This document shows, piece by piece, positions 4,961 through 28,185 of a stretch of DNA of 64,000 nucleotides. Location: contig CBDAOI010000004.1 in NCBI GenBank assembly GCA_965198005.1, forward strand, positions 1,792,001 through 1,856,000, in the 5' to 3' direction. The position numbers and the translations under genes are program-made. A model generated the notes under the pieces. That model searched no databases. It had not been told where the DNA came from and was given only the letters and a program-made list of their open reading frames with translations. Numbering within the stretch: the first letter of the stretch is position 1; every line of letters begins with the position of its first letter. This stretch comes from Spirochaetia bacterium. GTDB lineage: Bacteria; Spirochaetota; Spirochaetia; SZUA-6; Bin103.

Positions 4961-4973
4961 CAGGAATTGAGGT

Positions 4974-10321: not shown

Positions 10322-10380
10322 AGACAATATCGGTGACGAATGCCGAGGAAGCCAGAACCTTGACACCGGGCGGCTCCCCC

Positions 10381-11425: not shown

Positions 11426-11656
11426 GCGCCAGGCCAAGCCTGGGAGGGGAGGAAGATGTGAAACAGGCATTAGAAAAACCCTTCGTAGCCACCCTGTGGG
11501 TAACCAATCCCATACGGGGTTCGGGCGGCTGCGTGTTCCAGCGGCAAACATCGCGGCCTGCTGCGCGGGAAGTAGCGGAGACAGAGCCGCTTGCGTCTTT
11601 GCCGGGCGGCCGCCGGCGGCGTTGCCGGGGCGGATGCGGGTGGGCTATAGTCGGCG

Positions 11657-11956
11657 GTGATGGGCGCGAACGGCCGGGTGGGCGGGAATCTTCAGGCGTG
11701 GTGGGACGATATCTGCACGCAGTGCGGGGCGTGTTGCTACCAGCGCGACCGGGTGGCCGGCGAGTTGGCCGTGAACAAGCAGGCGCCGTGCCGGTTTCTG
11801 GATACCGACTCCAATCTGTGCACGGTGTACGCCTCGCGCTTCGAGAAGTGCGCCGAGTGCCGGCAGGTGACGCCGTTCCACGCGCTGTTCTCCCGCTATC
11901 TGCCGGACGACTGCGGCTACGTCGAGAAGTTCCGCTTCTGGCGCAAGGCGAACTGA
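11657..11956 (+). CDS. YcgN/YkgJ-like cysteine-cluster (CxxCxxCC) protein, copy 1
   Basis: WDDICTQCGACCY..CRFLD..CTVY..R..LPDDCGY. Confidence 0.85.
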   Translation: MMGANGRVGGNLQAWWDDICTQCGACCYQRDRVAGELAVNKQAPCRFLDTDSNLCTVYASRFEKCAECRQVTPFHALFSRYLPDDCGYVEKFRFWRKAN

Positions 11957-12324
11957 ACGAACTGAGCGGCGGCGCGGCGCGCCCGGTAGCGATCACCACC
12001 TACGTGGCGCGGACCCTGACCGACGGCGCCGCGGCGGTGCTGGAGTCGCGTTCGGCGGAGCTGTCGGCGGACGCCATCTTTCTCCTGACCGAGGACCTGA
12101 GCGCGCTCGACCTGGGCGAGGAGGTGGAGGTGCGCCTGGGGGTGCCGGGCGAGCGGCTGCACGCGGCGCAGGCGCGGGTGACGCGGTCGGCCCGCCGCTT
12201 CGCCGGGGGCAGGGGCGCGGGTGCGGCCGGGCCGGGGGGAAGCGGCTTCGAGCTGACCTTCAAGCAGTGCGAGCCCGGCTTCCAGAGCGCCGTCGCAGCC
12301 ATCCTGAACGGGATCACGGACTGA
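11953..12324 (+). CDS. PilZ-like domain protein (start uncertain)
   Basis: ELSADAIFLLT..LGEEVEVRL..ARVTR..GFELTF beta-barrel pattern. Confidence 0.55.
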   Translation: MNELSGGAARPVAITTYVARTLTDGAAAVLESRSAELSADAIFLLTEDLSALDLGEEVEVRLGVPGERLHAAQARVTRSARRFAGGRGAGAAGPGGSGFELTFKQCEPGFQSAVAAILNGITD

Positions 12325-12600
12325 CGGCCGGCAGGTCTCGGAAGTAGGTTCGGTAGAACCCGCGATCGCGGGTCGCGAGTCGGCTCGCCTGCACCTGGGC
12401 ATGGGCACCGATCACGAAGTCGGCGATGATCCGCTGGCCTCGCTCAAACCGGCCGACTGTTCAACGGGATTCGGCTGCCGGCGTCTGTTTCTTACGCAGG
12501 ATCAAACTCTCCCCTCGATTCGAGGAACACGACTTCGTCATGAGGCTCCAGAGCGAACCTCACCCTCAACTGCTTGGGAATCGTCACCTGGCCTGAATAC
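12314..12600 (-). pseudogene. Deleted copy of the AbrB-PIN toxin-antitoxin pair
   Basis: Collinear with 18851-19490 but with three internal deletions. Confidence 0.9.
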
Positions 12601-12832
12601 GTAGATAGGATATGTCAATCGCAGGGAGGTTGACGAGGTGATGACCGGGAGCGGCGGGGCTGTTTCTACCTCCGGGACGAAAGCAATGTGCACCAATGCA
12701 AGACACGAGCAAATGCTTGTTGCACCATTCGTCCCCTTGTCTCCTTGTCGGGCGTTACCGCCCAAGAAAAGCGGCACCCAGCTACCTCCGCCTGCTGGCC
12801 GCTACAGTTGTCGCTCGCGCGTAGCGCAAGTC

Positions 12833-13020
12833 CCTAGTGTCCTGTCTCATAAATTCGGCGCTCTTGGTCCAGATGAACGGCTCTGGCTTCTCGTTGTGGA
12901 CCCTCAAGTACTCCTCTATCGCCTGTTCCAGCTCCTCGGTGCTGCGGTGGGTACCGCGCCGAATCTGCTGTTCGGTAATCGCGGCGAACCACCGTTCGAC
13001 TTGGTTGATCCAGGATGCAC
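12833..13020 (-). pseudogene. IS630-family transposase C-terminal fragment with terminal repeat
   Basis: ITEQQIRRGTHRSTEELEQAIEEYLRVHNEKPEPFIWTKSA; end ctagtgtcctgtctcataaatt. Confidence 0.85.
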
Positions 13021-13447
13021 TCGATTACGGCGTCTGCGTCGAACCGGCACGGAACCATGGGCCTGCGCCCATCTCTACTGCCGGCAGCGCGGAGCCGGTC
13101 CGGCGTGTACGGGCTGTACGGGCGTACGAATGGTGGACGTTACGACGGAATCACGTTATGCTAGCGGAGGGTTGCGCCGAGCCTAGGACTCCACCCGCCA
13201 CCAAGAGCGTGGTGGATCATCGTACGACGTAGTGCGGATCCGATACTCAGTTGCGGGCATGACCCGGAGGGTAAGAGATGGAGCATGACAACCGGAATCC
13301 CAAGGGTGACCAGCGTCAACCCGGCGACAACTCTGGAGCCAGCACCGGCACCAAGGTGAAGATGTACCCGTACAACGTAAACGGTGTCCGCCTTTCGACC
13401 GGCACCAAAATGGAGGCCAACCATGCCGAAACATGGAAGAATGAGCT

Positions 13448-13557
13448 AAATCTGGTCTCAACCGTTAAACTTGGGCTAGATCACCACGACTTCACTGGAA
13501 GGGAAACTTCAAATCTGGTCTCAAGTTAAACTTGGGCTAGATCACCACGACTTCACT
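13448..13557. repeat. Two ~48-bp direct repeats separated by 14 bp
   Basis: aaatctggtctcaa(cc)gttaaacttgggctagatcaccacgacttcact at 13448-13496 and 13511-13557. Confidence 0.9.
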
Positions 13558-14650
13558 CCGGGCGAAGTCTCGTCTCCGCGAGGTTGTGCAGCCTGTTCAG
13601 GAAGTCCCTCTGCCGCACGCCATCGTCACCGCGGTCCTTGGATTGCTGCTCCGCTTCCCCGTACACACGGACCGTGTCATCATCGGAAATGAGTTCGGTT
13701 GTCGCCTCCGTTCCGAGCTCTCCAGCGGACTCTATTCTCGCACGCTCCAGGTAGAACCTTGCAAGCTTCTGCGCCTGCTCGGGGCTACCAAGTGGCGACA
13801 GTAGAATCTGATTGTCGAGTCTGCGTCGAAACGCCGGAAGCGCGCTCCCGTACCGTCGCATCGCGTCGGGTGTCATGGCAATTACCATAAACAGGAATTT
13901 CGGAAGGGCGTCTATGATGGCGCGGAGCGCGGAGAGATACCGGACTACCGCTCTCGGGGACAGAATGCCCGCCTGTTTCTCCAACTCATCGAGTAAGAGG
14001 AAAATGCCCTTCAATACGCCAAGTTCCGTGCTCAGAAGAACGTAATCCCTCAGCACGGTGGTCCGCGATTCCACGGTATCTAGTCGGAAACTGATGCCCA
14101 GACCGTTCCTGTGCGCGTTGAGAATACGGAATCCGAAGAACCAGTTGAGACACAGCTGAAAGAGATCGTCATCGTCTTGCTTCTTGGAGAGCGATAGCAG
14201 AGCCTGCCTCAGGTCGTAGGATCTCAGCATCGAAAGATCCGGATCCGCACTCGCAATCACCTTCACGACCTTTTTGAGATGATCGATGCCGAGTTCTTGA
14301 AAAACCGTTCGGATCACGCCATCGAACGACTGTTCGGGATCCGCCATGTACCGCACGATGTAGAAACCATCGAGCTCGGACTTCGCTTCCACTACTTCGC
14401 GTTCCAGGTAGTTCAACAGATTGGTCTTGCCGACTCCTTGCGTCCCGATGACCACCAGGACCTCGGATTTTTGCTCGCGGAGGAACGCGAGAATCCGGTC
14501 CTCGGCTGGCGTGTCTTCAGGAACAGGAGAATGCGGATTGCCGTAGGTCTGATTCGCTGACGGGTATGGGTTGGCAAGTACACCGAATTGCTCCAGGAGC
14601 TTACTCCGTCGATCCGAGTGCTGGTTCTGCATTCTGTCACGTAGGCTCAT
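13553..14650 (-). CDS. P-loop ATPase (BrxD/DUF2791-like architecture)
   Basis: N-terminal NPY; Walker A GTQGVGKT; Walker B FLLLDELE; ALPAFRRRL (arginine-finger-like). Confidence 0.8.
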   Translation of the reverse strand: MSLRDRMQNQHSDRRSKLLEQFGVLANPYPSANQTYGNPHSPVPEDTPAEDRILAFLREQKSEVLVVIGTQGVGKTNLLNYLEREVVEAKSELDGFYIVRYMADPEQSFDGVIRTVFQELGIDHLKKVVKVIASADPDLSMLRSYDLRQALLSLSKKQDDDDLFQLCLNWFFGFRILNAHRNGLGISFRLDTVESRTTVLRDYVLLSTELGVLKGIFLLLDELEKQAGILSPRAVVRYLSALRAIIDALPKFLFMVIAMTPDAMRRYGSALPAFRRRLDNQILLSPLGSPEQAQKLARFYLERARIESAGELGTEATTELISDDDTVRVYGEAEQQSKDRGDDGVRQRDFLNRLHNLAETRLRPE

Positions 14651-16680
14651 GACTCCACCTTTGTGATCTTCAGACTCGAGCTGGACTTTCCGGGGATAAG
14701 ATAGTCTCCGCGATATAGATACGCCGTCTTTACGAACGGTGGCCCGTCTTCCGGATCCAGCACCGTCAATCGGTGCCGGTCATAGCCGGACTCCGTCGTG
14801 GAGCCTTCAGTAAACCTGTTTAGCAATCCGCGCTCGCTGGCGGTCTGAAGCCGGAGGCGTGCGATATTGGGGTGGATTCCTTCGCGGATGATCAGTTCCT
14901 CCAACCAGCTCCCAGTTGCGACCCAACCGCCACCCGGTTCTATGCTGTCATATGCGGAAACTGCGATCGTCGCGAATGAACGGTCGTCGGGCTCGCGAGG
15001 CGTGGTGAAAAAGCCGGCGCCATACACAAACGCTCCAAGGCCCGTAAGCTCCGCCAGTGCGACGCACGTCGACTTGGATCGTCCAAACGCGTGTGGGTCC
15101 ACGGGATCGCCGACGGGCTGCTCCGCTAGCATCCCTTCCAACACGGCATATGACGGGAATGGGAGCAGGGCCTGACGCAGGTCCCTGCTGTCCCCGCTCC
15201 GAAGAGCAATGGCGAGCGGAGTCAGGGGCGGGGCTGCGGACCAACTCTCTTCGTCTGTAGTAATTGCGTGGCCGGACTGGAGATACCGACGGTATTCACC
15301 TATTCCGCCCAAGACGCGCAGACCAAGCGTGGCAGCGACCACGCCGATCGGCAGTCGCTGATCCGTCTCCAACGCATCCACCAACCTGAATAGTCGGTCA
15401 ATACTGACCCGGTACAAATGAGGCCTCGGCGGCGGTGAGGCGCCGACATCCGGTTGCTTCCGAAGAGATGGGCGAGATTGCGCCGAATCCATGGTAACAT
15501 CGTAGTCATCGCGCGTCGACGACACCGAAGCGGGAGAATCGGAGGTACGGGCAGCGTCCGGAGTCGTTCGCTTGGCACTGATCCAGAGCAAATCGTCATA
15601 GGAATGATACGGGGTCCACGCAAGGTCTTCGCCGATCGCATCGACGACGAGGGCATCGGCGTGGTCAGCGGTGGCCAGCCGTGCCGTGCCGAAGATGGTG
15701 GCAAGCTCCCATAGCACTGCGGGAATGCTTACCGTGTACATCTCCCCGGTGAACGGGTGCAGGTTCGTGCCGGCGAGCCGTCGGCCCAGGAACGCGCTAG
15801 CCTTGGCAGCCCGGAAGAACAGAGGACGCATACCCTCGGCAAGGGCCATGCGCGCGAGACCCTGGTCGCTGGTAAGCAAAGTCACCTGGTGACCGGCGGT
15901 CACCTGTGACTGGTATCTACGGGCCGTCTCCAGAATGAGCCGATCTGCGTAGGATCGTATGCTTCCGCTCATGTTCAGACCCTGTACCGAGTCTTCGACC
16001 AGAGAGGTGCGGTCGATCTCCACGTCAGAGTGCAGCTCGAGCTGCAGGAGAGCTCGCTGGCCAGCTTGGCTCTTCAAATGACTGATCAGCATGTCAGATC
16101 GCTTCGGCTTCGACGCCCGTCTGATGCGGAGAAACTCATCAGCCATGTTCACGATTTCCATCTGTACGACCGCGGGAACCCTCACTCTCGCCACCGGATG
16201 GAGGTACCTGGACACGAAACCCAGGCCACCCTGGATCACGCCGGACGTATCGCTGACGACGGTAGTGGGCCGCCGAAAGGGCATAGCCGCCAACGCCTGA
16301 GGATCGAATAGCGGATGGCCCAGTCCCAGACGCACCGGGATCGCACCGAGCATGTCCGCTATCCGTCGTACCTTGTCCTGCTCTGCACGTTTTTTTGCGC
16401 AAGCCACAATGCTCGTTACGCCCAGGTATTCCTCGAGCCGCTCCGCGGTCTTCTTTTGTTCAGGCGTAAGCCACTCGAATGCGCCCCGCGCGACAGCCGA
16501 AGCGCGGTACTCGCGCGTGTCCTCGTGCGCGAACAGTCGGATCTTCCCTAGCGACAAGAATTCGGGCTTCTCGAACGCGCGCTCCTCCCGTACGGATATG
16601 GTACAGACGTTGTCGTTCTCGAACATGTCGGCGATTACGTCGGTGGCGTCCGTAGGTGACGACAATCTCTGTTCACTCAT
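14647..16680 (-). CDS. Large protein with PIN-like nuclease domain and uncharacterised C-terminal region
   Basis: VVSDTSG...VPAVVQMEI...ADRLILE...LLTSDQGLA acidic PIN pattern; ATGA overlap with the ATPase. Confidence 0.7.
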   Translation of the reverse strand: MSEQRLSSPTDATDVIADMFENDNVCTISVREERAFEKPEFLSLGKIRLFAHEDTREYRASAVARGAFEWLTPEQKKTAERLEEYLGVTSIVACAKKRAEQDKVRRIADMLGAIPVRLGLGHPLFDPQALAAMPFRRPTTVVSDTSGVIQGGLGFVSRYLHPVARVRVPAVVQMEIVNMADEFLRIRRASKPKRSDMLISHLKSQAGQRALLQLELHSDVEIDRTSLVEDSVQGLNMSGSIRSYADRLILETARRYQSQVTAGHQVTLLTSDQGLARMALAEGMRPLFFRAAKASAFLGRRLAGTNLHPFTGEMYTVSIPAVLWELATIFGTARLATADHADALVVDAIGEDLAWTPYHSYDDLLWISAKRTTPDAARTSDSPASVSSTRDDYDVTMDSAQSRPSLRKQPDVGASPPPRPHLYRVSIDRLFRLVDALETDQRLPIGVVAATLGLRVLGGIGEYRRYLQSGHAITTDEESWSAAPPLTPLAIALRSGDSRDLRQALLPFPSYAVLEGMLAEQPVGDPVDPHAFGRSKSTCVALAELTGLGAFVYGAGFFTTPREPDDRSFATIAVSAYDSIEPGGGWVATGSWLEELIIREGIHPNIARLRLQTASERGLLNRFTEGSTTESGYDRHRLTVLDPEDGPPFVKTAYLYRGDYLIPGKSSSSLKITKVES

Positions 16681-17589
16681 CGGACACTGACCGAAATGTT
16701 GGGTTGTTCTTCGAATACATCAATCAACCAGGATAGATGATTCACCAGCACACCTGCAGACTCCCGCCGCCCCGGCCGTTCGCGCCCATCACCGCCGACT
16801 ATAGCGCAGGCTCCTCCGCACCGGCAACGGAGCCACGGCAGACGCGATGCAAAGTGCCTACGGACCGGGCCACGACGTAACGTCGAGCGCGGTTGACCGC
16901 AGGCAGGATCAGATGTAATGGGTGTAAGTAGGTGTCACGCGCCGGGAGGTAGCGGCTCCCAGCACCGGTACTGCGGCTGTCCCGGAGGTAGCGGTCGGCG
17001 TGATGGCAGGCGGGGGAAATGGGTGCGAGGTTTGCCCCCGTTTGGGCCGTTTGCGGCAGGGGGGTAGCAAAGCCCTCCCAGTCGATAGCACAATGGCTAT
17101 GACTGGGAGAAATGCTTGTTGCACCATTCCGCGGCGCCGCGAGCGGCCGCCCGTAGATCGGCATGGGGCTGACCGACAGCGGCCGCGAGTTCTGCATCGG
17201 CTACCCCCTCCGTCTCGCCGGCGCCCGGGCGCGGCCTCAGCCTCACCCTTGAGCGACCCGCCGCGAACACGCCGCCGGCACCGCCCGTGCGACACTCCAC
17301 CCTCCACAGGCAACCCATCGCTGGTGACATCCCCGGCCGCTTCGGTAACGGCCGGCGCGAGTGCGTCGACCTTCAGAGGCACCACGGCGTGGCATCCCGT
17401 CCGCGGAGCCGGCTCGTCGGTTGGGGCAGCCGCTGAAGCCCGCTACAACTGCCCCAACGATTACATCGAGTCCTCTTCATCATGCTTTCGCTGATGGTAG
17501 CGCACGCCCTCTGTCAGACTCGGGTTGACCATTGCCATGTAAAGGTGTAGCTTAACATCAGAGAGTGCCAAACTGAATGACAAGGCGTA

Positions 17590-17790
17590 TTCGTCGCAGC
17601 ACGGACCGCCGCGAAACAGAGCGAAGTGTCTCAAGATCGCTGGCGAGCGGTTCTGGGAGTTCAAGGCTCACCAGCAACGCGTTATCCGGTGCTACGACCC
17701 AAAGAGTTTACGAAGAAGACTAGAGGCAGTCGCCGAGACGTGAGATCGAAGCCGGACGGCGGGCATACCGCGAAGTTCAACAAGAACTCG
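17590..17790 (+). pseudogene. RelE/ParE (Gp49-like) toxin remnant
   Basis: HGPPRNRAKCLKIAGERFWEFKAHQQRV, then FTKKT in another frame; upstream of an XRE HTH gene. Confidence 0.55.
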
Positions 17791-17793
17791 ATA

Positions 17794-18126
17794 TTGCAAA
17801 ATAAGAGGAAGAACGAGGTGATCGAGAATTGGGGACAACAGTACGAGGGAGATCCTGAGTACGAGTTCGACCTCCTGGCAATCGACATCGGGGAACGCAT
17901 CGTTGAGCGGATGGAACAACTCCGGATCACGCGGACCGCTTTGGCGGCAGCGCTTGGTGTGAGCAAGGCGCGTATCAGCCAGATCCTCAGCGGCCACGAT
18001 AACCTGACCATGAAGAGTCTCGTCGCGGTTGCGGCCGGGTTGGGGAGCCGGATTGAGCTACGGTTGAAGAGCAAGGAGAGCAATACGAAGACGACGAGGG
18101 CAACAAGGGCACGCCGCAGATGCTGA
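17794..18126 (+). CDS. XRE-family HTH protein (HigA-like antitoxin); start approximate
   Basis: ITRTALAAALGVSKARISQILSGHDNLTMKSLVAVA. Confidence 0.85.
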   Translation: MQNKRKNEVIENWGQQYEGDPEYEFDLLAIDIGERIVERMEQLRITRTALAAALGVSKARISQILSGHDNLTMKSLVAVAAGLGSRIELRLKSKESNTKTTRATRARRRC

Positions 18127-18353
18127 TCTACAACGGTTCCGCGATGCTGTATGGTGCTGCCAGAGGCATCATTGAGACGGTGACGAGCCTTACGGGGTTC
18201 GGGCGGCTGCGTGTTCCAGCGGCAAACATCGCGACCCTCCTTCGCAGGAAGTAGCGCAGACAGACCCCTTTGCGTCTTGTGTCGTGTGCGCTGTGTGCGC
18301 GGTGTGCGCCAAGTGGTGTTGCCGGCGCGGATGCGGGTGGGCTATAGTCGGCG

Positions 18354-18653
18354 GTGATGGGCGCGAACGGCCGGGTGGGCGGGAATCTTCAGGCGTGGTG
18401 GGACGATATCTGCACGCAGTGCGGGGCGTGTTGCTACCAGCGCGACCGGGTGGCCGGCGAGTTGGCCGTGAACAAGCAGGCGCCGTGCCGGTTTCTGGAT
18501 ACCGACTCCAATCTGTGCACGGTGTACGCCTCGCGCTTCGAGAAGTGCGCCGAGTGCCGGCAGGTGACGCCGTTCCACGCGCTGTTCTCCCGCTATCTGC
18601 CGGACGACTGCGGCTACGTCGAGAAGTTCCGCTTCTGGCGCAAGGCGAACTGA
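18354..18653 (+). CDS. YcgN/YkgJ-like cysteine-cluster protein, copy 2
   Basis: Protein identical to 11657-11956. Confidence 0.85.
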   Translation: MMGANGRVGGNLQAWWDDICTQCGACCYQRDRVAGELAVNKQAPCRFLDTDSNLCTVYASRFEKCAECRQVTPFHALFSRYLPDDCGYVEKFRFWRKAN

Positions 18654-18861
18654 ACGAACTGAGCGAACTGAGCGGCGGCGCGGCGCGCCCGGTGGCGATC
18701 ACCACGTACGTGGCGCGGATGCTGACCGACGGCACGGCGGCGGTGCTGGAGTCGCGGGCGCCGCGTGGCCGGCGGGAAGCGGCTTCGAACTGACCTTCGA
18801 GCAGTGCGAGCCCGGCTTCCGGAGCGCCGTCGCAGCCATCCTGAACGGGATCACGGACTGA
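18650..18861 (+). pseudogene. PilZ-like gene copy 2 with internal deletion
   Basis: Lacks ~12051-12218 of copy 1. Confidence 0.8.
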
Positions 18862-19252
18862 CGGCCGGCAGGTCTCGGAAGTAGGTTCGGTAGAACCCGC
18901 GATCGCGGGTCGCGAGTCGGCTCGCCTGCACCTGGGCATGGGCACCGATCACGAAGTCGGCGATGATCCGCTCACGTTCCCCACCAGCCGATCGGTACGC
19001 GCGCCACAAGCGTCCCGCGAGAAACAGTGCAGCGGTGTTGGAGGACTCACAGCGAATCTGTGAATCGCGCAGAAAAGAATCCAACTCGTCGGTCGTCGTA
19101 AAGTTCGCGGCCAGCTCTGCGTAGACCAAGTCGCAGATGACCAATCGCCCCTCCATCGAGCTGGCCTCGATCAAACCGGCCGACTGTTCAACGAATTCAG
19201 GATTGGGGCGAAGAATATCGAGCAGGATACTGGTATCGACTGCGGTCGTCAT
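18851..19252 (-). CDS. vapC: VapC/PIN toxin
   Basis: MTTAVDTSILLD..VYAEL..IADFVIGAHA..LATRDRGFYRTYF. Confidence 0.9.
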   Translation of the reverse strand: MTTAVDTSILLDILRPNPEFVEQSAGLIEASSMEGRLVICDLVYAELAANFTTTDELDSFLRDSQIRCESSNTAALFLAGRLWRAYRSAGGERERIIADFVIGAHAQVQASRLATRDRGFYRTYFRDLPAVSP

Positions 19253-19473: not shown

Positions 19474-19479
19474 GGACGG

Positions 19480-19508
19480 AATATGAATACGTAGATAGGA
19501 TATGTCAA
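19480..19508 (-). promoter_or_regulatory. Sigma70-like promoter for AbrB-PIN
   Basis: Minus strand TTGACA-17 bp-CATATT. Confidence 0.55.
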
Positions 19509-19527
19509 TCGCAGGGAGGTTGACGAG

Positions 19528-20436
19528 GTGATGACCGGGAGTGGCGGGGCAGGGGGCGTGGCGGGGCTGCGGCTGGGGGAGCTGGAGCTGTGGATGGTGG
19601 AGGACGTGCGCTGGCGGCTGGACGGCGGGATGATGTTCGGGACGGTGCCGCGTGTGATCTGGGAGCGGACGGCGCCGCCGGATGCGCGCAACCGGGTGGC
19701 GATGGCGCTGCGCAACCTGCTGATTCGCGGCCGCGACCGGGCCGGCCGGCCGGCGGTGGTGCTGGTGGACGCGGGGCTGGGCGAGATGGCGGCGGGCGCG
19801 CGGTTTCGCGAGCTGTACGGGGTGACCGATCCGGCCGGGCGGCTGCTGGCGGAGCTGGCGGCGGCGGGGGTGGCGGCGGGCGACGTCACGCACGTGGTCT
19901 ACACTCACCTGCACTTCGACCACGTCGCGGGCGGGGTCACCAGCGGCGGCGGCGGTGACGGCGGCGGGCCGCGGCCGGTGTTTCCGCGGGCGCGCTACCT
20001 GGTGCACCGGGGCGAGCTGGCCTACGCCATGCAGCCGGATCGGCGCAGCCGGGCCAGCTACCTGCCGGAGACCTGGCAGCCGCTGCTGGAGGCGGGGCGG
20101 CTGGACACGGTGACGGGGGAGCACGAGGTGATCCCCGGCGTGACGCTGCGCGACGCGCCGGGCCATACCGACCACCTGCAGGTGGTGACCGTGGCCGGGG
20201 GTGGGCGCACCGTCCTGTTCACCGCCGACCTGTTTCCGTTCGCCAGCCACCTCAAGTCCCACTACGTGCCGGCGCTCGACATCGATCCGCGCCGCACGAT
20301 GGAGTCGCGCCGCCGCTACCTGGAACTGATCGCACGCGACGGCTGGCTGCTGCTGTTCCAGCACGACCCCACGTACGGACTGGTGCGCGTAGAACCGGAC
20401 CTGACCGTCACGCCGATGTCCGGCCTCTCGGGATAA
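19528..20436 (+). CDS. MBL-fold metallo-hydrolase (YtnP-like)
   Basis: RLDGGMMFGTVP, THLHFDHVAG (HxHxDH), PGHT, FQHDP. Confidence 0.92.
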   Translation: MMTGSGGAGGVAGLRLGELELWMVEDVRWRLDGGMMFGTVPRVIWERTAPPDARNRVAMALRNLLIRGRDRAGRPAVVLVDAGLGEMAAGARFRELYGVTDPAGRLLAELAAAGVAAGDVTHVVYTHLHFDHVAGGVTSGGGGDGGGPRPVFPRARYLVHRGELAYAMQPDRRSRASYLPETWQPLLEAGRLDTVTGEHEVIPGVTLRDAPGHTDHLQVVTVAGGGRTVLFTADLFPFASHLKSHYVPALDIDPRRTMESRRRYLELIARDGWLLLFQHDPTYGLVRVEPDLTVTPMSGLSG

Positions 20437-20596
20437 CCCGATGCCATACCCCGCGGCTCGCGTACGCCCATGGCCATCGGATCTCCGTCTTGGCCGCACA
20501 TCCCCGATGAGCATCGGCGTCTATTGCCTGGATTGGTGAGCCGCGAAAGCTCGGCGTGAAAGTACTTCGTGAATGCAACCTTGAGGTGACTGAGTT

Positions 20597-20940
20597 ATGA
20601 AATCGCTTGTCGGTGGTCATGTCTTTCTTTCGGCTAGCTTTCCGTCTGGCGAGAGAGGCGAGAAATTCCAACCTTTCGATGCGGCGGCAGTAGCGGACGC
20701 CGTTAGCGCTATCGTTCGTGCGGTGTTGGTGAGCGAAGGAAAGCTCCTCTTTGGCGGTCACCCGACCATCACCCCGCTTGTTCTGATGATCGGAGCTGAA
20801 CTTCGTGTTAGGCGAGCTGTAGATGTCTTTCAGTCGGAGTGGTTCAGAGACGAGGTTACTCCGGAGACATGGAGTATCCAAGGATCCGATGTTGGAAGCA
20901 TTCATTGGACTCCAAGACTCAGCTCCCGCGACGACAGGAT
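20597..20940 (+). pseudogene. SLOG-domain protein, 3'-truncated
   Basis: VFLSASFP..LLFGGHPTITPL..VFQSEWF; the frame then runs antisense into the neighbouring ATPase. Confidence 0.65.
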
Positions 20941-20968
20941 TTCGGGAGGCGTGTGGGCGTCCCAATGG

Positions 20969-22489
20969 TTACGCCGACCTGCGTGCAATCGTTGGGCGTC
21001 TGCTGACACCTCCCTTGCGGCGCAGATTGAGACCGGAGAGGTACAGGTCAGGCACGTCTACGCGATTGTCCGCACGTCGCCGGAAAATGCCGAGCTCGAT
21101 CAAGTAGTCGAGCAAATCGGCCGCTCGGTCGGCGGGCGGACGTAGCCCACCGGCACGCTCCGGGCCCCAGCTCCCGTCCCAGTCTGTTCCAAGCAGCCTC
21201 GTGATCTTGGCCCGGGCCCACGGCACAAGCTGATCTTCCTGCAGCCTGATACGGACTCCCTCCAGCCACGGCCACTCACTTGAAGTACCCTGTGTGACAT
21301 GATTGTCGGAAACATCGTCGAGTGCCTGCCGGAGAGCCGTGGGATGAATCAGCCGGGGCGGACGCAACGATTGATTCGCCGCGTCTTTCCCGGCGGCTTG
21401 TTCAAGCAGCCGAACCAGCGATCGCGGACTCACTTGTCCGTTTCCATCCCGCAGATGAGCAAGTACCCAGTTGCGCACAAAGCCCTTCTTTCGTTCGGCC
21501 CCCATGAATTCGCCGGCAAGTCGCTCCAGCAGGGACCACGCGTCGCGGGGCTCCTTGATTCGTGGGATCATTCCCAGAATGGCGTCCTCGTCGAACCGGA
21601 GTCGAGACCTCCGACAATACGCGGCGAGATCCTCAGAAGTGTTGGCGATACGCTTCACCAACATGGCCAGCAGCGCCGCGTCGGACCACGTGAGCTCGGC
21701 TCGGTTGGCCGCGAGTTTGGCGAAGTCGGCCGTACCCATGCCGGCGTGCCACCTGAACAGGTCTGAACGGAGGAAGATCTTGGCCCGTATCCGTTCCCAA
21801 CGCCGGCTGTAGTCAGACCAGAAGCCGATCAGACCTCGCACCATGCGAGCCATCAGGTCCCAATCGAAACCGCCCAGCGTATCAAGCTCGTCGTAGCCAA
21901 CGAAAACCCATCGATTCTTTCGTTTGAGTTTTCCCTCCAGCTCGTCGAGTGCTCCTGTTGGACTCACCTCCAGCGTTTCGTATGCGTGAAGGATGTCTCC
22001 GACTTCTACTGCCATCGGCGCCATTAGCGGAGTGAGCTTCTGTCGCTGATCCTCGGTAAGAAATTTTCCCAGCGACCGAACGAGCATCGCGTGCCAGATT
22101 TTCTTGGCATCCTCTTCCGAGCGCACCCATTTATTGAGTGCCTGGCTGTCGGGAAAATCCGTGTGGGCCGGATATGCGGCCTTCCATTCCGATGAGTCGG
22201 AAAGAGCTTGTAGAGTCGAGGGGCCGGGCGCCCAGCGCCTGATCGAATCAGCCAGATCGCGGTTTTCCGAGAAGAATGCCTTGAACAAAGCGCTCTTCCC
22301 GGAACCTCGGGGGCCAACGACTAGAACGACCTTCGTATCGAGAGCACGGAGATGCTCTGATACCGGATAGAGGCGTAATGCGAACAGCTCGTCAGTCTCC
22401 GTTTCCGCTTGCCCGTAGCCGAGATCGGTGAGCTGGGCACGTAGTGCCATGCAGTCCTGCTTGGTCAATCCCGGCGACCGATTGCTCAT
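20969..22489 (-). CDS. P-loop ATPase (Sll1717-like)
   Basis: VVGPRGSGKS, FVGYDELD, KIFLRSD, VSPRS; ATGA overlap with the upstream gene. Confidence 0.82.
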   Translation of the reverse strand: MSNRSPGLTKQDCMALRAQLTDLGYGQAETETDELFALRLYPVSEHLRALDTKVVLVVGPRGSGKSALFKAFFSENRDLADSIRRWAPGPSTLQALSDSSEWKAAYPAHTDFPDSQALNKWVRSEEDAKKIWHAMLVRSLGKFLTEDQRQKLTPLMAPMAVEVGDILHAYETLEVSPTGALDELEGKLKRKNRWVFVGYDELDTLGGFDWDLMARMVRGLIGFWSDYSRRWERIRAKIFLRSDLFRWHAGMGTADFAKLAANRAELTWSDAALLAMLVKRIANTSEDLAAYCRRSRLRFDEDAILGMIPRIKEPRDAWSLLERLAGEFMGAERKKGFVRNWVLAHLRDGNGQVSPRSLVRLLEQAAGKDAANQSLRPPRLIHPTALRQALDDVSDNHVTQGTSSEWPWLEGVRIRLQEDQLVPWARAKITRLLGTDWDGSWGPERAGGLRPPADRAADLLDYLIELGIFRRRADNRVDVPDLYLSGLNLRRKGGVSRRPTIARRSA

Positions 22490-23790
22490 CTGGCGCTGCT
22501 CCACAACCGCTCGGCAAGGTCGCGGTACGGGCCTTCACGAAGGAGAATTGGCTCGGCTACTTCACTCAGGTCGCGAAACGTTGCCAAGCGTTCTTCATAC
22601 GGCAGCACCACGGGCACGTGTGGCGCATCATCGCTCTCAAGGTCGCTGAGCGTCCATAGTTCATCCGCCGCCTCATCCGGCTCAGCGTAGTAGTGGGCGC
22701 TGAATGCATCGCGAGCGCGCTCGGTGAACTGGGATACGAGTCCCTGAAATAGGGCTTCATCGGAGCGCGGTACCATGGACGCTGCCAACAGACATTCTGC
22801 CTGTGGCTTGCCTTCCCGGACACGGTCTCCTCCAAGTCGCTTGAGGACGAGCTCCAGCCCCCGCCAACTCGCTTCGGCAAGTGTGCCCAGGAGTACGTGG
22901 ACGTGACATAGACCTCCAGTCAGAAATCCGGACACCTCCCCCAGTCCGGCACGGGCGTCAATCAGAATCCAGCGTGGTGCAAGTTCTCGTCGAATCTGCT
23001 GCAACAGCTCGACAAACGGGTGCGGCGTACCGGCCGACGGTCTCCCATAGTCGATGCGGGCCAGCTTGTCCACATATGCGTCGTCGAATACTCCTGAGGG
23101 GTACACGGAGATCTCTTCCGCGTCGGCGGCGGCATCACGGGCTACATAACGGTGGTGGTAGTCATCGGTCGGCAGCTCGGTCTCCTTCAGAACACGCTGT
23201 TCCAGAAGGTAGTCCACGATACCCCACTGTGCGGTGGAACCGTCATGTCCGGCAAGCAGGTAGCCGACTCCAGGCGCATCCAGATCGGCATCGAGAACAG
23301 CTACCCGATCGCCGCCTTTGGCGAGATGCAACGCGGTGGCGGCGAGCGCAGTTGATCGGCCAACACCACCCTTGAACGAATAGAACAACACGATGGCGGG
23401 TGCGTTCCTTGCACGCATCGTCCATGGCGGATCGGGTGGCGCGTCGAACCAACCGGACTTCGTCAGGTGCTTTTCCAGAATCCGGAGCTTGTCAGTTCCT
23501 TCGTGACGCTTGGCCTGCCGCCAGGAATCCTCTTGCCACGCGCCGTCAGGATGGCCTCTACGTTGTCCTGGAAGGACGCTCTTCGACCAATAATCCGCGC
23601 AGACCTCTCTGAGCTTGTGATCGATTTCGTTGCGACTTGATTCCCATTCACTTTTGGCACACCAAAGAATGACACGGAGCATGGACAGCACATCCTTGAC
23701 GACAAGGATACGCCAGTTTGCAGGCTTGCTTTCGATCCACTCGATTAGAAACTCTTCAGCGAATTTGTACGCCTCGTTCAGGTGTTGCAT
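22486..23790 (-). CDS. KGGVGR-variant ParA/MinD-like ATPase
   Basis: FYSFKGGVGRSTAL, DADLDAPG, ILIDARAG. Confidence 0.87.
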   Translation of the reverse strand: MQHLNEAYKFAEEFLIEWIESKPANWRILVVKDVLSMLRVILWCAKSEWESSRNEIDHKLREVCADYWSKSVLPGQRRGHPDGAWQEDSWRQAKRHEGTDKLRILEKHLTKSGWFDAPPDPPWTMRARNAPAIVLFYSFKGGVGRSTALAATALHLAKGGDRVAVLDADLDAPGVGYLLAGHDGSTAQWGIVDYLLEQRVLKETELPTDDYHHRYVARDAAADAEEISVYPSGVFDDAYVDKLARIDYGRPSAGTPHPFVELLQQIRRELAPRWILIDARAGLGEVSGFLTGGLCHVHVLLGTLAEASWRGLELVLKRLGGDRVREGKPQAECLLAASMVPRSDEALFQGLVSQFTERARDAFSAHYYAEPDEAADELWTLSDLESDDAPHVPVVLPYEERLATFRDLSEVAEPILLREGPYRDLAERLWSSAR

Positions 23791-24185
23791 CAGATCAGGC
23801 CTGCGCGAGTGAGGCCGCCGACAACCTTCTTGTAGACGTCGTCCGCCTCTGCGAGCCAATCCTGGGCGACGGATGCTGCAACGTACGGTCTCCGATAGCG
23901 CATTCGCGGTCTCCACGTCAGTATCTGCTTCATGGCTTGCGAAACAGCGATATATAGGGTGCCCGTACGAGACCCCGATAGCACTGCGAGCGTCTGTACT
24001 TGTAACTGTAGACTGCTCAAATCGTGAATATGTGGAACCTTCTTGTTCTCAACATCAATCATCGTCTTCAGCGCGCACTCGACTACGTATCCCGCGAGAT
24101 ATGCGGCACCATCGTAGCGATTGCTCTTCAACAGAGCCTGTGCATCTTCAAGATGCTTCAGAGCTGCCTTTGGGAAGTCGTCCAT
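23790..24185 (-). CDS. HEPN-like domain protein
   Basis: AALKHLEDAQALL..GAAYLAGYVVECALK..HIHDL..W...MRY. Confidence 0.75.
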   Translation of the reverse strand: MDDFPKAALKHLEDAQALLKSNRYDGAAYLAGYVVECALKTMIDVENKKVPHIHDLSSLQLQVQTLAVLSGSRTGTLYIAVSQAMKQILTWRPRMRYRRPYVAASVAQDWLAEADDVYKKVVGGLTRAGLI

Positions 24186-24258
24186 AGTACAGGTCGCATA
24201 TTAGAAGCATGAGGAAGCGTGTATCATGTGTCAACCTGTGGGGGACGAGGTCGATGAG

Positions 24259-25153
24259 GTGATGACCGGGGGCGATGGGGCAGGGCGCGCGGCGGCGCTG
24301 CGGCTGGGGGAGCTGGAGCTGTGGATGGTGGAGGACGTGCGCTGGCGGCTTGACGGCGGGATGATGTTCGGGACGGTGCCGCGCGTGATCTGGAAGCGGA
24401 CGGCGCCGCCGGACGCGCGCAACCGGGTGGCGATGGCGCTGCGCAATCTGCTGATTCGCGGCCGCGACCGGGAGGGCCGGCCGGCGGTGGTGCTGGTGGA
24501 CGCCGGACTGGGCGAGATGGCGGCGGGCGCGCGGTTTCGCGAGCTGTACGGGGTGACCGATCCGGCCGGGCGGCTGCTGGCGGAGCTGGCGGCGGCGGGG
24601 GTGGCGCCGGGCGACGTGACGCACGTGGTGTACACCCACCTGCACTTCGACCACGTGGCGGGCGGGGTCACAAGCGGCGACGGCGGCGGCGGACCGCGGC
24701 CGGCGTTTCCGAGGGCGCGCTACTTGGTGCACCGGGGCGAGCTGGCCTATGCCACGCGGCCCGACCGGCGCAGCCGCGCCAAGCTATCTGTCGGAGACCT
24801 GGCAGCCGCTGCTGGAAGCGGGGCGGCTCGACCCGGTGGACGGGGAGCACGAGGTGATCCCCGGCGTGACGCTGCGCGACGCGCCGGGCCATACCGACCA
24901 CCTTCAGGTAGTGACCGTGACCGGGGGCGGGCGCACCGTCCTGTTCACGGCCGACCTGTTTCCCTTCGCCAGCCACCTCAAGCCGCACTACGTACCGGCG
25001 CTCGACATCGACCCGCGCCGCACGATGGAGTCGCGCCGCCGCTACCTGGAACGGATCACGGGCGACGGCTGGCTGCTGCTGTTCCAGCATGATCCCACGT
25101 ACGCCCTGGTCCGGGTGGAACCGGACCTGACGGTGACGCCGGTGGCGGAGTAG
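24259..25153 (+). pseudogene. MBL-fold hydrolase copy with +1 frameshift near 24781
   Basis: Paralogue of 19528-20436; gcc-a-agc versus gccagc splits the frame. Confidence 0.85.
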
Positions 25154-25255
25154 CGGCTGAGGTTTGATCAGGTGGACGCCGAACCGTAGAGATGGGTCAA
25201 TGATGGAGAATAGCACGGCGCGCCGTAGATGGTCCGCTATCCGGGAGATCGCCCC

Positions 25256-25924
25256 TTATGCGGGGACCACTACATGTATTATATCGCGTTCACGCGGACG
25301 GATCGTGTCCGCAAACGTATCGCCGGTGGATGGCAGGTTCTCAGCATAACGCACGAACGCTGTGTGATAGAAGTTTCTGAGAATGAAATCGACAAACCGG
25401 AACGGAGTAAGGGGAGCCGTTACAGGAATGCGACAGTTACGGTATTGACCGAGAGTCAAGTGACAGGCGGGATGGTCATGGGCAGCATTGTCGTCAACTC
25501 GTATATCGTAATCGAATCGCACTGGAAACGGGACAATATTCCTGGCAACAACATCCGCATAGAGATCGTCCGACAGGTAGATATCGGGATTATTCTGAAA
25601 CTCGTCGAGATGGGGAGCGGGGAAAAAAGACAGGCGATGACGGCGAACAATTTCAGAATCAAACGCGTACATCATTTGAATCAGTGCGCCGTCGAGCATT
25701 TTGACGTTGTACGCTCGTGCAGTCGATAGTTGTTCGTAGATATCGGAATAACTGACATTCCTGAGCGCAATATTGACGTGGTGAGAGTTTGCAAAGGATA
25801 TGTGCTTGGTATGCGCGCCTGCCGATTTAAGTACTGCGTAGTGTTGCTCGTCCGCTAGTCCTTTTTCCACGAGGTATGAAATGAGTGAATTGATCTGACT
25901 GTAAGTGTCAGTAGCAGTGGGCAT
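25256..25924 (-). CDS. DUF2290 domain protein
   Basis: KMLDGALIQMMY..HRLSFFP..PVRFDYD..HPACHLTLGQYRNCRIPVTAPLTP. Confidence 0.85.
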   Translation of the reverse strand: MPTATDTYSQINSLISYLVEKGLADEQHYAVLKSAGAHTKHISFANSHHVNIALRNVSYSDIYEQLSTARAYNVKMLDGALIQMMYAFDSEIVRRHRLSFFPAPHLDEFQNNPDIYLSDDLYADVVARNIVPFPVRFDYDIRVDDNAAHDHPACHLTLGQYRNCRIPVTAPLTPFRFVDFILRNFYHTAFVRYAENLPSTGDTFADTIRPRERDIIHVVVPA

Positions 25925-25929
25925 TGGTA

Positions 25930-28089
25930 CTAACCAGGCTGCTCGAGATGTTGTTTCAGTCTCTCGACGAGATCCTTATCCAGATCGCGCAGGCTCATTT
26001 TGCCGGATTCAAGGTCGGTAATCAAGTCAGACAGAAACTCATCTCTAAGCTGGAGTTGTTGTAGTTTCTGGTGAGACATGTCTCGGTGGACGATTCGCAG
26101 CTGCTCTCGTTGTTCTTCTGTAGGATATTTGAATCGAAGCTCAAAATTGCAATATTTCAGTGTTTCGTACTCCTCAATAAGTGCGCTCATATTGCTCCCA
26201 ATACCGAGTACGCGAATCCATGCCTTACTCCTCGTTATGGCCGTGAATAGACGATTCCTGAGTGTTGCGAGATTGTACGCGGAGGCGTGACAGTCCTGGG
26301 CGTTGATGATATAGACCATCCCAGCTTCGTTGCCTTTCGCACGATGAATTCCGGTGAAGGTGACTGAGTCGTTCTCGCTCTTGTTGAAGTCATCAGGATC
26401 AGTGTCCACGCCTGCGACGTGACATTCTATCCCTTCTTCCAGCAGACGCCGGCGAATGGGCCCAACCTGGTTGCGAGTGGACCGGGGATCGGGGTTTATG
26501 ACGATAATGTCATCGTGTCGGAGTTCTTCTTTTGTGAGGTTTTCTTTGATTTGTTGCACCAACCAATCGGCCTGTTCCCGGTGACTCTCGAAGATCTTGA
26601 ATTGTATCAGATCTTGCATCGGGGAATGGGTCTCCAAGAAGTGTGGACTCGTAGTCTCCGATCGAACGAGAGCTACGTCTGAGCCCGGCTGAAGTTGTCC
26701 GGAACGGCGACGATACCCGATCTCCTCCCAGAGTCGCGGATGGTCAAACATCTGCACGAGTCCGTTGCTCTCTCGTGCTGACGGCTTTCGATAGATCCCA
26801 AAACCGAGTGCGTGGGCAGTGACCAAAACGGGGCGGGAGTTTCGGTAGCACTTCTCCAGAATAATGTCCTTCCTCATCGTGCCGTCAGACTGAGAATCAA
26901 GGCGAACCCGAGGAGAACCATCCGGGTTCTTGCCAAAAACAATCTCGGGGGCTGGAAGCGAGGACTCGGTGAGACTCTGAAGCTCATCGTACGCATAGAT
27001 CAACCGTTTCGGGTCGTTAAGAGATTCATAGCAAAGCTGGAGAAATGCAGGAGAAAAATCCTGTGCTTCATCGACAAGGATTACATCATAGATTCGCTGT
27101 GGTTTACCCGCTTGGCTGACAGCATGCTTACATGCACTAGCAAATGGATTGTCTGACCCAAACTCTGACCGTGCGCCACGGAAATCGAAATAATCAACCT
27201 CGTTGGCTGTACAGAATGCGTAATAGATGCCATCTCGGTCCGATCTTCCTGGAGCACCCCATGCATTCACAATCCGGAGGGCTTCCCAGTCCGGTTCCTC
27301 CCCGGTCTGCTCCAGACAGAAGATGGTGATGAGCCGCCGGAAGAATCCCTTTAGAGAACGTGTGTTGAAGGTTACCGCAATGCGCCAATCAGAATGCTGA
27401 ACGTGGAGATAAGCAGCCTTCAGAGCAAGAACGATGGTCTTGCCAGAACCGGCGAGGCCTCTAATTCGTTGCACCCCCTCAACGGTCTCGATAACCGCCT
27501 TGTTCTGTATTGAGTCGAGGGTTGCGATGGAATCTTCAAGGCGCTTGAGCCTTGCACCGCGCGAGTTGTCGTGCTGGACGGTGCGACGGACGCGGCTCTT
27601 GCGTATCGTTGACGTACTTTCAATTACGGAGAGAGCGGCTCGGTAGACACTCGCGGTCACTGGTGTCTTGCACTGCGGTAGTCGGTCGAGCAGGTTATCT
27701 CCGTTCGTAAGCGGATAGGTGTCGGTACTGGTGCCATTGGGGCAGTTCACCGCAGGCGCGAAGGAGACTGGGTGGATTTGAATGCGAAGTGATCTCCGAT
27801 CTACGAGCTCCGAGTGCTTCCTGAGGCGTGCTTCAAGTTGGTTGTACGACTCGTCCTGGCGTGCCTGGTAATCTCCCGGTTCGGTACCTTCAATTAGATC
27901 AAAGAGGACGATACCGGTGTCCTCTGAAATGAGTAGGGCGTCGATGGGATAGGAACCGGTCGGCGTAACCATGATGGGATAGCCAATGAACAGTTCACCA
28001 GTCAAGTTGGGGTGCCTCGCTAGGCACTGTTCGAGGGCTGCGCTGGACGCAGGTTTGTTGGTCGTGCCGCGAACGATATCGATAGCCAC
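25930..28089 (-). CDS. Superfamily I helicase with N-terminal nuclease-like domain (helicase-DUF2290 defence system)
   Basis: QRIRGLAGSGKT, ILVDEAQD, CYRN, IHRAKGNE, RNRLFTAITR; immediately upstream of DUF2290. Confidence 0.88.
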   Translation of the reverse strand: MAIDIVRGTTNKPASSAALEQCLARHPNLTGELFIGYPIMVTPTGSYPIDALLISEDTGIVLFDLIEGTEPGDYQARQDESYNQLEARLRKHSELVDRRSLRIQIHPVSFAPAVNCPNGTSTDTYPLTNGDNLLDRLPQCKTPVTASVYRAALSVIESTSTIRKSRVRRTVQHDNSRGARLKRLEDSIATLDSIQNKAVIETVEGVQRIRGLAGSGKTIVLALKAAYLHVQHSDWRIAVTFNTRSLKGFFRRLITIFCLEQTGEEPDWEALRIVNAWGAPGRSDRDGIYYAFCTANEVDYFDFRGARSEFGSDNPFASACKHAVSQAGKPQRIYDVILVDEAQDFSPAFLQLCYESLNDPKRLIYAYDELQSLTESSLPAPEIVFGKNPDGSPRVRLDSQSDGTMRKDIILEKCYRNSRPVLVTAHALGFGIYRKPSARESNGLVQMFDHPRLWEEIGYRRRSGQLQPGSDVALVRSETTSPHFLETHSPMQDLIQFKIFESHREQADWLVQQIKENLTKEELRHDDIIVINPDPRSTRNQVGPIRRRLLEEGIECHVAGVDTDPDDFNKSENDSVTFTGIHRAKGNEAGMVYIINAQDCHASAYNLATLRNRLFTAITRSKAWIRVLGIGSNMSALIEEYETLKYCNFELRFKYPTEEQREQLRIVHRDMSHQKLQQLQLRDEFLSDLITDLESGKMSLRDLDKDLVERLKQHLEQPG

Positions 28090-28185
28090 GTCAACCTCTC
28101 ACGAAGCAGCATACCATGGACTGGGGCCGCTATGCGCGTATGGAAACGGTCGCGCCCTTGTGTGTTGAGTGAATGACGGCGGAAG

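Follow-up and report, generated by a model that had tools for sequence, protein, structure and literature searches.

Repeated copies of neighbouring host genes between defence cargos in a Spirochaetia genome, and how the array may have grown

How defence systems are gained and then stacked in islands that hold no integrase is still poorly explained, and the question is raised again by a locus of a Spirochaetia bacterium (assembly GCA_965198005.1) in which host genes recur between modules of lower-GC DNA. The window, meaning the whole stretch of 64,000 nucleotides that was analysed, covers positions 1,792,001 to 1,856,000 of contig CBDAOI010000004.1, and all coordinates given here are counted from its first letter. 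Between 9.7 and 28.2 kb of the window, a host block made up of a ycgN-like gene, a PilZ-like gene, a vapBC toxin-antitoxin pair and a gene for a metallo-beta-lactamase (MBL)-fold hydrolase is present, whole or in part, as copies A, B and C; two fragments of a PhyH gene (2OG-Fe dioxygenase) lie to the left of them, and each copy has a different cargo of putative anti-phage or toxin-antitoxin genes beside it (Table 1). An earlier reading made without database searches, here called the sequence-only reading, had described a serial array of host-gene repeats and defence cargo at this place and had suggested that it might be a system for accreting cargo. We propose that the 9.7-28.2 kb region was built up as DNA from related strains recombined with it on several separate occasions, in events that were each anchored by homology and one-ended, and we put the probability of this reading at roughly 0.55.

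The same topology is found in three pairs of direct repeats, namely PhyH (101 bp), copies A and B (about 1.15 kb) and copies B and C (about 0.9 kb). In each pair, cargo is enclosed by the two copies; the one on the left runs on into the host gene in the leftward direction, and the one on the right extends to the right. An anchor before each module, which is the mark of sequential displacement, is present throughout: there are three MBL copies (one of them a 23-nt stub), three copies of ycgN (one a 16-codon stub) and two pieces of PhyH, each by a different cargo. In the proposed route, homology to a gene of the host, be it PhyH, ycgN or the MBL-fold gene, would have let one end of the incoming DNA pair there, and the other end would have been joined illegitimately, either by homology-facilitated illegitimate recombination or through a single crossover of a circular fragment; the two would leave the locus looking alike and are not distinguished by these data. 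Each event would have added foreign cargo together with a donor allele of the anchor gene, the resident copy remaining on one side, whole or truncated, and the donor copy on the other. The spare copies would then have decayed through deletions and a frameshift, and parts of them would have been homogenised by gene conversion. The route of recombination, the direction and order of the events, the gene conversion in ycgN and any role of a captured promoter are what we infer from this pattern; a dedicated enzyme is neither needed nor seen.

Copies of the host block

The repeats were confirmed by self-BLASTN of the window and by pairwise MAFFT alignment. Copy A matches copy B in four segments, with identities of 91.6% (11510-12050 against 18188-18756), 96.4% (12216-12435 against 18753-18972), 97.7% (12465-12594 against 19328-19456) and 98.5% (12594-12660 against 19484-19550), and copy B matches copy C at 92.0% over 902 columns (19516-20415 against 24247-25141, E = 0). 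The recurrence of the host block and of the MBL gene, as claimed by the sequence-only reading, is therefore real at this level, as are its statements that the ycgN genes of A and B are identical (300 of 300 nucleotides) and that the MBL gene of copy A is cut after a few codons, 23 nt being left. It had also counted an AbrB-PIN pair as part of the block. This holds for copy B, in which vapB and vapC are intact, and fails for copy A, in which deletions and an insertion have left only remnants of both genes (Table 1). In composition the block also stands apart from its cargo as had been claimed, since the GC content at third codon positions (GC3) is 0.91 for ycgN, 0.95 for the PilZ-like gene and 0.93 for the MBL gene, values like those of the host core, and 0.51-0.69 for all of the cargo genes.

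Each copy has suffered a different kind of damage. The MBL gene of copy C has a 6-nt in-frame deletion and, near 24782, a 1-nt insertion that causes a frameshift, and the open reading frames (ORFs) of this copy, 24226-25092 and 24749-25153, sit in different frames. The PilZ-like gene of copy B is broken by a deletion, and copy A has lost most of its vapBC pair and nearly all of its MBL gene. For the PilZ-like gene, for vapBC and for the MBL gene just one copy is still intact, ycgN being the exception. Complementary decay of this kind is what redundancy within a single genome would lead to, and would not be expected of strains that were co-assembled; it bears on the possibility that the array is an artefact, in which haplotypes of co-existing strains were strung in series during assembly. 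That the source is evidently of metagenome type, that the relatives are all metagenome-assembled genomes (MAGs), that the three units resemble three versions of one variable locus and that a 327-bp exact ycgN repeat is present would all suit an artefact, whereas a strain's sole copy should be intact and each copy here is damaged, and the joints between truncated copies and cargo share no sequence able to mislead an assembler. The PhyH and inverted ycgN scars described below point to a long history of rearrangement, and the contig holding the window is 2,448,548 bp long, which, together with the 327-bp exact repeat that it holds, suggests that the repeats were spanned by reads. An artefact is thus regarded as very unlikely, and the sequence argues for an arrangement that is real rather than an assembly error.

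The names of the block genes follow from profile matches of differing strength. The label of the ycgN-like gene comes from NCBIfam NF003504 (E 6.5e-18, below the cut-off), and that of the PilZ-like gene from an Atlas score of 0.95 to PilZ clusters together with a weak TIGR02266 match of 21 bits; the PilZ-like protein had no Pfam match, and a PDB sequence search with it gave nothing meaningful. The MBL protein of copy B scored 145 bits against a YtnP-like lactonase model, below its cut-off of 425. When the thiolase and the anchor proteins were compared with the window by tblastn, no further pieces of them were found.

Alleles or duplicates

The MBL genes of copies B and C differ by 64 substitutions, scattered along the gene as had been noticed before, and 40 of the 64 are at third codon positions. 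By the Nei-Gojobori method 41 are synonymous and 23 non-synonymous, giving a dS of 0.19, a dN of 0.037 and a dN/dS of 0.20. The probability of 23 or fewer non-synonymous changes among 64 is 1.7e-9 if the changes were neutral, and 1.8e-4 under neutral drift of one copy after a duplication in place (omega 0.55). A protein search found on another public contig a protein (P0001) that is 98% identical to MBL B and has a tail of the B type. A maximum-likelihood tree was built from eight sequences hand-picked among the 120 matches listed, namely MBL B, a read-through of MBL C, P0001 and five relatives of 70-82% identity. It gave the topology (C,(B,P0001)), with support values of 100/97 and 100/98, and the branch of C (0.032) was shorter than the stem of B (0.06). 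A pseudogene decaying in place should have a longer branch, and C was therefore probably functional for most of its history. With a dN/dS of 0.20 and with C outside the B/P0001 clade, the sequences of MBL B and C look like those of alleles that evolved in separate genomes.

Copies A and B form a mosaic. Upstream of ycgN they are 87.8% identical and in ycgN 100%, with zero substitutions over the 327 nt of 11630-11956; the PilZ-like gene stands at 92.2% and the vapBC remnants at 98-99%. This unevenness is significant in Fisher tests (P = 5.5e-7 and 6.6e-7). Such a mosaic fits two alleles that were partly homogenised by gene conversion.

These results also bear on the alternative that the host block was duplicated in tandem in its own genome, that cargo was later inserted independently at each joint, and that the spare copies slowly decayed. 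The repeats are direct and in tandem orientation, the spare copies have indeed decayed, and the vapBC remnants of A, at 98-99% to B, and the identical ycgN genes are as expected after a recent duplication. To produce the locus in this way, however, three duplications with differing end points would be needed, with cargo entering each time exactly at the new joint. It also fits poorly with a change between B and C that is mainly synonymous, with a pseudogene C whose protein branch is the shorter one, with an allele from another contig that is nearer to B than C is, and with a divergence between A and B that is so far from uniform. We consider tandem duplication in place improbable. A simpler history, in which A and C were once contiguous and were parted by a single 11.6-kb insertion at the 5' end of the MBL gene, was suggested by a 35-nt overlap between the end of A and the start of C. 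It was rejected, for the 23-nt MBL stub of A and its spacer are B-like (1 difference) and not C-like (3 differences and a diverged spacer).

The locus was also compared with that of relatives. A genome scan with MBL B gave 80 loci, the nearest six of which (L001-L006) belong to Spirochaetia or Spirochaetales MAGs and encode MBL proteins that are only about 70% identical. In three of the six (L002, L004 and L005) a convergent thiolase gene lies 100-330 bp beyond the MBL gene; in L006 a 1.6-kb insert lies between the two, L003 has other genes downstream, and L001 ends 168 bp past the MBL gene. Adjacency of MBL and thiolase genes in relatives is likely to be the ancestral state, which would make cargo 2, copy C and cargo 3 additions. 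A second MBL copy was found in none of the 80 loci. Searches of these loci by tblastn with ycgN, the PilZ-like protein, vapC and the PhyH fragments gave no match, as did tblastn searches of the window with the genes that precede MBL in L002 and L006, and the MBL-thiolase spacers of L002, L004, L005 and L006, compared with the stretches of the window after B, after C and before the thiolase gene, gave nothing above noise. Of the ycgN-PilZ-MBL locus that the sequence-only reading would follow across related genomes, it is thus the MBL-thiolase side that is recovered in relatives, and not the ycgN/PilZ-like side or the extra MBL copy. Cargo 3 looks variable, in that the 90% cluster of its helicase has no other member, the next relative being 75% identical, and no further strain of that database has this cargo at close identity. 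The 90% clusters of the MBL and thiolase proteins have 6 and 3 members; these cluster sizes hint that close strains without cargo 3 exist in public data. A further observation concerns P0048, a protein of 195 amino acids, which by eye matches P0002 (a 79% relative of the MBL protein, on a different contig) over about the first 125 of its residues, after which the frame is lost. Either a relative here has a frameshifted additional MBL copy as well, or the difference is a variant of the assembly.

Several of these points weigh against growth by import from related strains. A dN/dS of 0.20 would also fit two paralogues that were long functional in one genome before a recent frameshift, and the frameshift in MBL C, caused by a single extra base, could be a sequencing error. 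The PilZ-like genes of A and B differ at 5 synonymous and 6 non-synonymous codons, too few to decide. Upstream of the MBL gene the relatives at about 70% identity have PhyH (on the opposite strand) and NIPSNAP and not the ycgN-like and PilZ-like genes, so that the ancestral left flank is not established, and variation between strains in cargo and copy number is at most hinted at by indirect database columns. No intact allele of the A or C type from another genome was seen among the sequences compared. The claim of the sequence-only reading that cassettes repeatedly come in linked to an allele of the adjacent host gene is nevertheless the best reading, the serial import itself being something that we infer.

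Joints, scars and promoters

Pfam scans found no integrase, recombinase or transposase family in the 110 ORFs of at least 62 amino acids that overlap about 9.7-28.3 kb, nor in the 136 stop-to-stop frames of at least 35 amino acids around the junctions. In the 83 ORFs of the flanks, matches to mobile elements were limited to an IS66 fragment and a group II intron maturase, and no tRNA or tmRNA gene was found in the 64 kb. The nine junction flanks were aligned locally in pairs on both strands (72 comparisons, 300 shuffles), and no shared motif or attC-like repeat was detected, the best score of 12.0 being equal to the maximum of the 300 shuffles; the two ends of each cargo likewise had no inverted or direct match above shuffles. 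The earlier claim that integrase and attC-like sites are missing is borne out by these scans and comparisons, and insertion sequence (IS) ends, which could have offered another explanation of the junctions, were looked for as well, with no transposase or IS end seen at any joint. The locus is accordingly without the IntI integrase and the attC-like repeats of an integron, without the integrase, att repeats and tRNA/tmRNA site of a site-specific island, and without the transposase (in 9.7-28.3 kb) and terminal inverted repeats of an IS or composite transposon. Inverted repeats of 40 nt or more occur in the region only as the pairs formed by a ycgN fragment.

The joints lie at five unrelated positions in three genes: inside PhyH, at codon 16 of ycgN, at codon 8 of the MBL gene, after the stop codon of MBL B and within the final codons of MBL C. 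Joints scattered in this manner fit illegitimate joining better than a recombination site. The last of them is visible in the protein tails, which read TPMSGLSG in B, TPVSRLSG in P0001 and TPVAE in C, in accordance with the different ends (MSGLSG* and VAE*) given by the sequence-only reading; since the tail of C ends early where relatives go on, cargo 3 seems to have clipped MBL C. This clipping, and the fact that cargo follows the 3' end of an MBL gene twice, would be in keeping with site-specific integrative elements accreted in tandem, which take the MBL gene (or ycgN) as their target, bring a replacement copy of it and have since lost their integrases, as islands commonly stack at one attachment site. 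No remnant of an integrase or recombinase was detected in the frames scanned, however, the joints share neither motif nor position, and the repeats consist of diverged coding sequence 0.1-1.4 kb long and not of short identical att cores, making this alternative highly improbable.

Two further scars are of the same kind. The 3' part of the PhyH gene is split in two pieces, the left one running upstream into the gene and the right one to the end of the gene, and the end of fragment 1 (10222-10322) is repeated directly at the start of fragment 2 (11263-11364) with 93% identity over 101 nt. GC3 is 0.94 over 10120-10323 in fragment 1. Between the repeat copies lies a HicB-like cassette, whose matches to Pfam HicB-like_2 (E 1.6e-4) and HicB_lk_antitox (E 5e-4) are both below the gathering score. 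The second scar is a third and more diverged piece of ycgN, which lies inverted inside cargo 1 and corresponds to residues 1-16 of the protein (tblastn) with a promoter-like site at 16827-16798. The stub is followed by a stop, an AT-rich spacer of 64 nt and, on the same strand, the start codon of the PIN_4 gene at 16680. A sensitive BLASTN search of 16600-17700 found this 110-nt fragment to be the sole host remnant there.

A TTGCCG-18-TATAGT match is common to copy A, copy B and the inverted ycgN fragment, and a captured ycgN promoter may thus drive the operon of the PIN_4 and ATPase genes; the promoter-like sites are consensus matches only, 8 having been found where 4.7 were expected. In copy A the truncated MBL gene opens an ORF of 182 amino acids (12638-13186, + strand) that reads on into cargo 1. 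This chimeric ORF lies behind the MBL promoter region and had no family match in the library scans.

Both arrangements would be of use to a platform on which units of anchor and cargo loop out as circles, pass to relatives and re-enter by a single crossover. If such an integrase-free cassette platform were run by general recombination, the array would grow as integrons do, with kb-scale coding repeats as its 'sites', and truncated anchors would lend promoters to defence operons; we regard this extension as unlikely. A platform that is dedicated to accretion in this manner, with units moving between relatives and host promoters driving the cargo as in integrons, we judge to be quite unlikely. 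It would explain why the succession of anchor and cargo recurs four to five times in 18 kb, why a ycgN promoter-like site with a 16-codon stub is directly upstream of the PIN_4/ATPase operon on its strand, and why the MBL start codon of copy A opens a frame into cargo 1, but no gene or site specific to a platform was found in the region, the 80 related loci are without a second MBL copy, the promoter-like sites are no more than consensus matches, and general recombination suffices for the pattern. Nothing points to the dedicated, integron-like accretion system that the sequence-only reading had raised.

Cargo, island setting and known systems

Table 1. Position, strand and supporting evidence of the features at the locus, in order along the window
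Feature	Position	Strand	Evidence or remark
IS66-family transposase, C-terminal fragment	1963-2469	-	Pfam scan of flank ORFs
GmrSD_N-type fragments, on opposite strands	4363-5178; 4974-5321	-; +	adjoin the group II intron
Group II intron RNA	5527-5751		Rfam group-II-D1D4-6, 169.5 bits
Group II intron reverse transcriptase/maturase	5759-7336		TIGR04416, 350 bits
SocA/Panacea-domain antitoxin gene	9188-9739	-	severs the 5' part of PhyH fragment 1
PhyH fragment 1, middle of gene	9763-10322	+	Pfam PhyH profile 123-212 of 213, E 1.2e-15
HicB-like antitoxin cassette	10381-10794	-	between the PhyH repeat copies; GC3 0.59
PhyH fragment 2, 3' end of gene	11263-11461	+	PhyH profile 181-212
Copy A	11510-12660	+	ycgN-like 11657-11956 intact; PilZ-like 11989-12324 (+) intact; vapBC remnants; MBL start
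Copy A, vapC remnant	about 12325-12470	-	deletions of 190 and 136 bp
Copy A, vapB remnant	about 12471-12600	-	28-bp deletion removes the start codon; 1-bp insertion
Copy A, MBL stub	12638-12660	+	includes the start codon, ends after 23 nt
Cargo 1, composite	12661-18187	both	first ~890 bp without a recognised gene
Cargo 1, AAA ATPase	13553-14650	-	Pfam BrxC_BrxD 1.4e-7, AAA_22; weak BrxC/D match
Cargo 1, PIN_4 protein (677 aa)	14647-16680	-	Pfam PIN_4 3.6e-4; Atlas 0.97 to PIN_4-bearing clusters
Third ycgN piece, inverted in cargo 1	16745-16854	-	BLASTN 81-86%; promoter-like site and first 16 codons
Cargo 1, HTH/HigA-like	17626-18126	+	Pfam HTH_3 4.7e-9; HigA TIGR02607 2.3e-7, below cut-off
Copy B	18188-20436	+	ycgN-like 18354-18653 intact; vapC, vapB and MBL intact; PilZ-like pseudogene
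Copy B, PilZ-like pseudogene	about 18695-18858	+	169-bp deletion
Copy B, vapC	18851-19252	-	intact; Pfam PIN 1.8e-12
Copy B, vapB	19249-19473	-	intact; Pfam MazE_antitoxin 2.7e-6
Copy B, MBL-fold hydrolase	19528-20436	+	intact, 302 aa; Pfam Lactamase_B 9.9e-16
Cargo 2	20437-24246	both	SLOG-domain remnant and PDC-M28
Cargo 2, SLOG-domain remnant	20597-21145	+	Pfam LD_cluster3, match covers just positions 7-71 of 170
Cargo 2, M28C, Sll1717-type ATPase	20969-22504	-	PADLOC PDC-M28C 3.1e-68, profile 4-478 of 480
Cargo 2, M28B, KGGVGR/ParA-like ATPase	22486-23916	-	PADLOC 4.8e-54
Cargo 2, M28A, HEPN	23790-24185	-	PADLOC 2.6e-13
Copy C, MBL gene alone	24247-25153	+	92% identical to B; tail VAE*
Cargo 3	25154-28185	-	Helicase+DUF2290 anti-phage pair
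Cargo 3, DUF2290 protein	25256-25924	-	PADLOC 8.7e-93, 308 bits, 1-221 of 222
Cargo 3, UvrD-like helicase	25930-28089	-	PADLOC Helicase, 1013 bits, 2-705 of 707
Thiolase (acetyl-CoA acetyltransferase)	28186-29382	-	Pfam and NCBIfam; GC3 0.96; first host core gene on the right

Of the three cargos lying between and behind the copies, the third holds a Helicase+DUF2290 pair that, in the accessible text of Rousset et al. 2022 (PMC9122126), inhibited phage T7. As judged from its profile matches, cargo 2 is a complete candidate defence system of the PADLOC collection, PDC-M28 A/B/C, all three components being matched nearly end to end. For cargo 1 (GC3 0.67-0.69, with about 1.6 kb free of any family match) the label of defence is plausible and less secure. 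Two local features of this cargo were also seen: the stretch 16855-17600 has a GC content of 0.65-0.70, matches no family or repeat and contains just overlapping ORFs whose GC3 pattern is not coding-like, and a 49-nt tandem pair (13448-13496 and 13511-13557, 96%) lies just downstream of the AAA ATPase gene.

The stretch 1-28185, which has a lower GC content than the core that begins at the thiolase gene, forms an island of defence and toxin-antitoxin genes within a Spirochaetia-like genome of high GC. In the core on its right the thiolase gene, an acetyl-CoA-synthetase-like gene and a decarboxylase gene have GC3 values of 0.93-0.96. PDC-M28 A/B/C, Helicase+DUF2290, GmrSD-type fragments, VapBC, HicB, SocA/Panacea and HigA-like genes are clustered in the island, as is characteristic of defence islands, and the site is empty in relatives. 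The SocA/Panacea gene and the IS66 fragment imply that the island extends to the left edge of the window. The group II intron, the sole Rfam match in the window at the gathering threshold, may have inserted into, or next to, a GmrSD-like restriction gene that is broken. Far to the right, in a RecQ-type helicase gene (60072-62423, - strand), GC-rich direct repeats with 71-nt units that are 61-77% alike were seen at 61304-61485; they are probably a low-complexity coding stretch.

The idea that a locus may grow in this manner is, by analogy, not new in kind, as homology-facilitated illegitimate recombination with sequential displacement has already been proposed for type VI secretion system (T6SS), Rhs and contact-dependent inhibition (CDI) arrays. 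In the part of Kirchberger et al. that was available (PMC5361080), new T6SS effector-immunity modules of Vibrio cholerae are described as entering by such recombination at a conserved upstream anchor and as pushing older genes downstream, a sequential displacement that the authors relate to Rhs/CDI orphan arrays and liken to integrons without an integrase. The likeness to the present locus extends, as far as that text goes, to the conserved homology anchor, the illegitimate far end, the old copies kept in truncated or orphan form and the serial array without an integrase. The cargo there is of effector-immunity type, whereas here it consists of anti-phage and toxin-antitoxin modules; the anchor there is the 5' part of the toxin gene, and here it would be ordinary neighbours (an MBL-fold hydrolase gene, ycgN and PhyH), with whole genes duplicated. 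The locus described here, unlike those arrays, is known from one genome only.

The recombination itself has parallels in the laboratory. In homology-facilitated illegitimate recombination, as presented in the same available text (PMC5361080), homology at one end together with an illegitimate joint adds foreign DNA beside the anchor, and according to the accessible part of Johnston et al. 2013 (PMC3784515) transformation can create partial duplications, or merodiploids. Those are observations made in transformable bacteria, whereas the present case is known from its sequence. The analogy with integrons and tandem islands lies in the serial cassettes and in a possible expression from a fixed promoter, and ends with the IntI-type integrase, the attI/attC-like repeats and the tRNA or att core, in whose place diverged coding sequence forms the repeats here.

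Defence hotspots are a further point of comparison. Integrase-free hotspots between core genes have been documented in surveys of E. coli, Pseudomonas aeruginosa and Acinetobacter (PMC10121019, PMC10250203, PMC5635113; seen here in part), and the present island resembles them, in what those parts report, in having several systems between conserved host genes, no marks of mobile elements and a site that is empty in relatives. Kilobase-scale diverged copies of flanking genes between the cargos seem, in the same parts of these surveys, not to be described. A literature search on duplicated flanking genes at integrase-free defence loci returned nothing relevant, and, the search being thin, this is weak evidence of absence. 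What differs here from the earlier arrays is the use of ordinary neighbour genes as anchors, the duplication of whole genes, and a cargo of anti-phage and toxin-antitoxin modules. Should growth by serial, homology-anchored import be true, the locus would be a readable record with several layers of anchor copies, each with its own cargo and its own stage of decay, and the displacement model would be extended from toxin-immunity arrays to ordinary defence hotspots, in which diverged and decaying copies of flanking core genes could serve as markers by which acquisitions in other genomes are found and dated.

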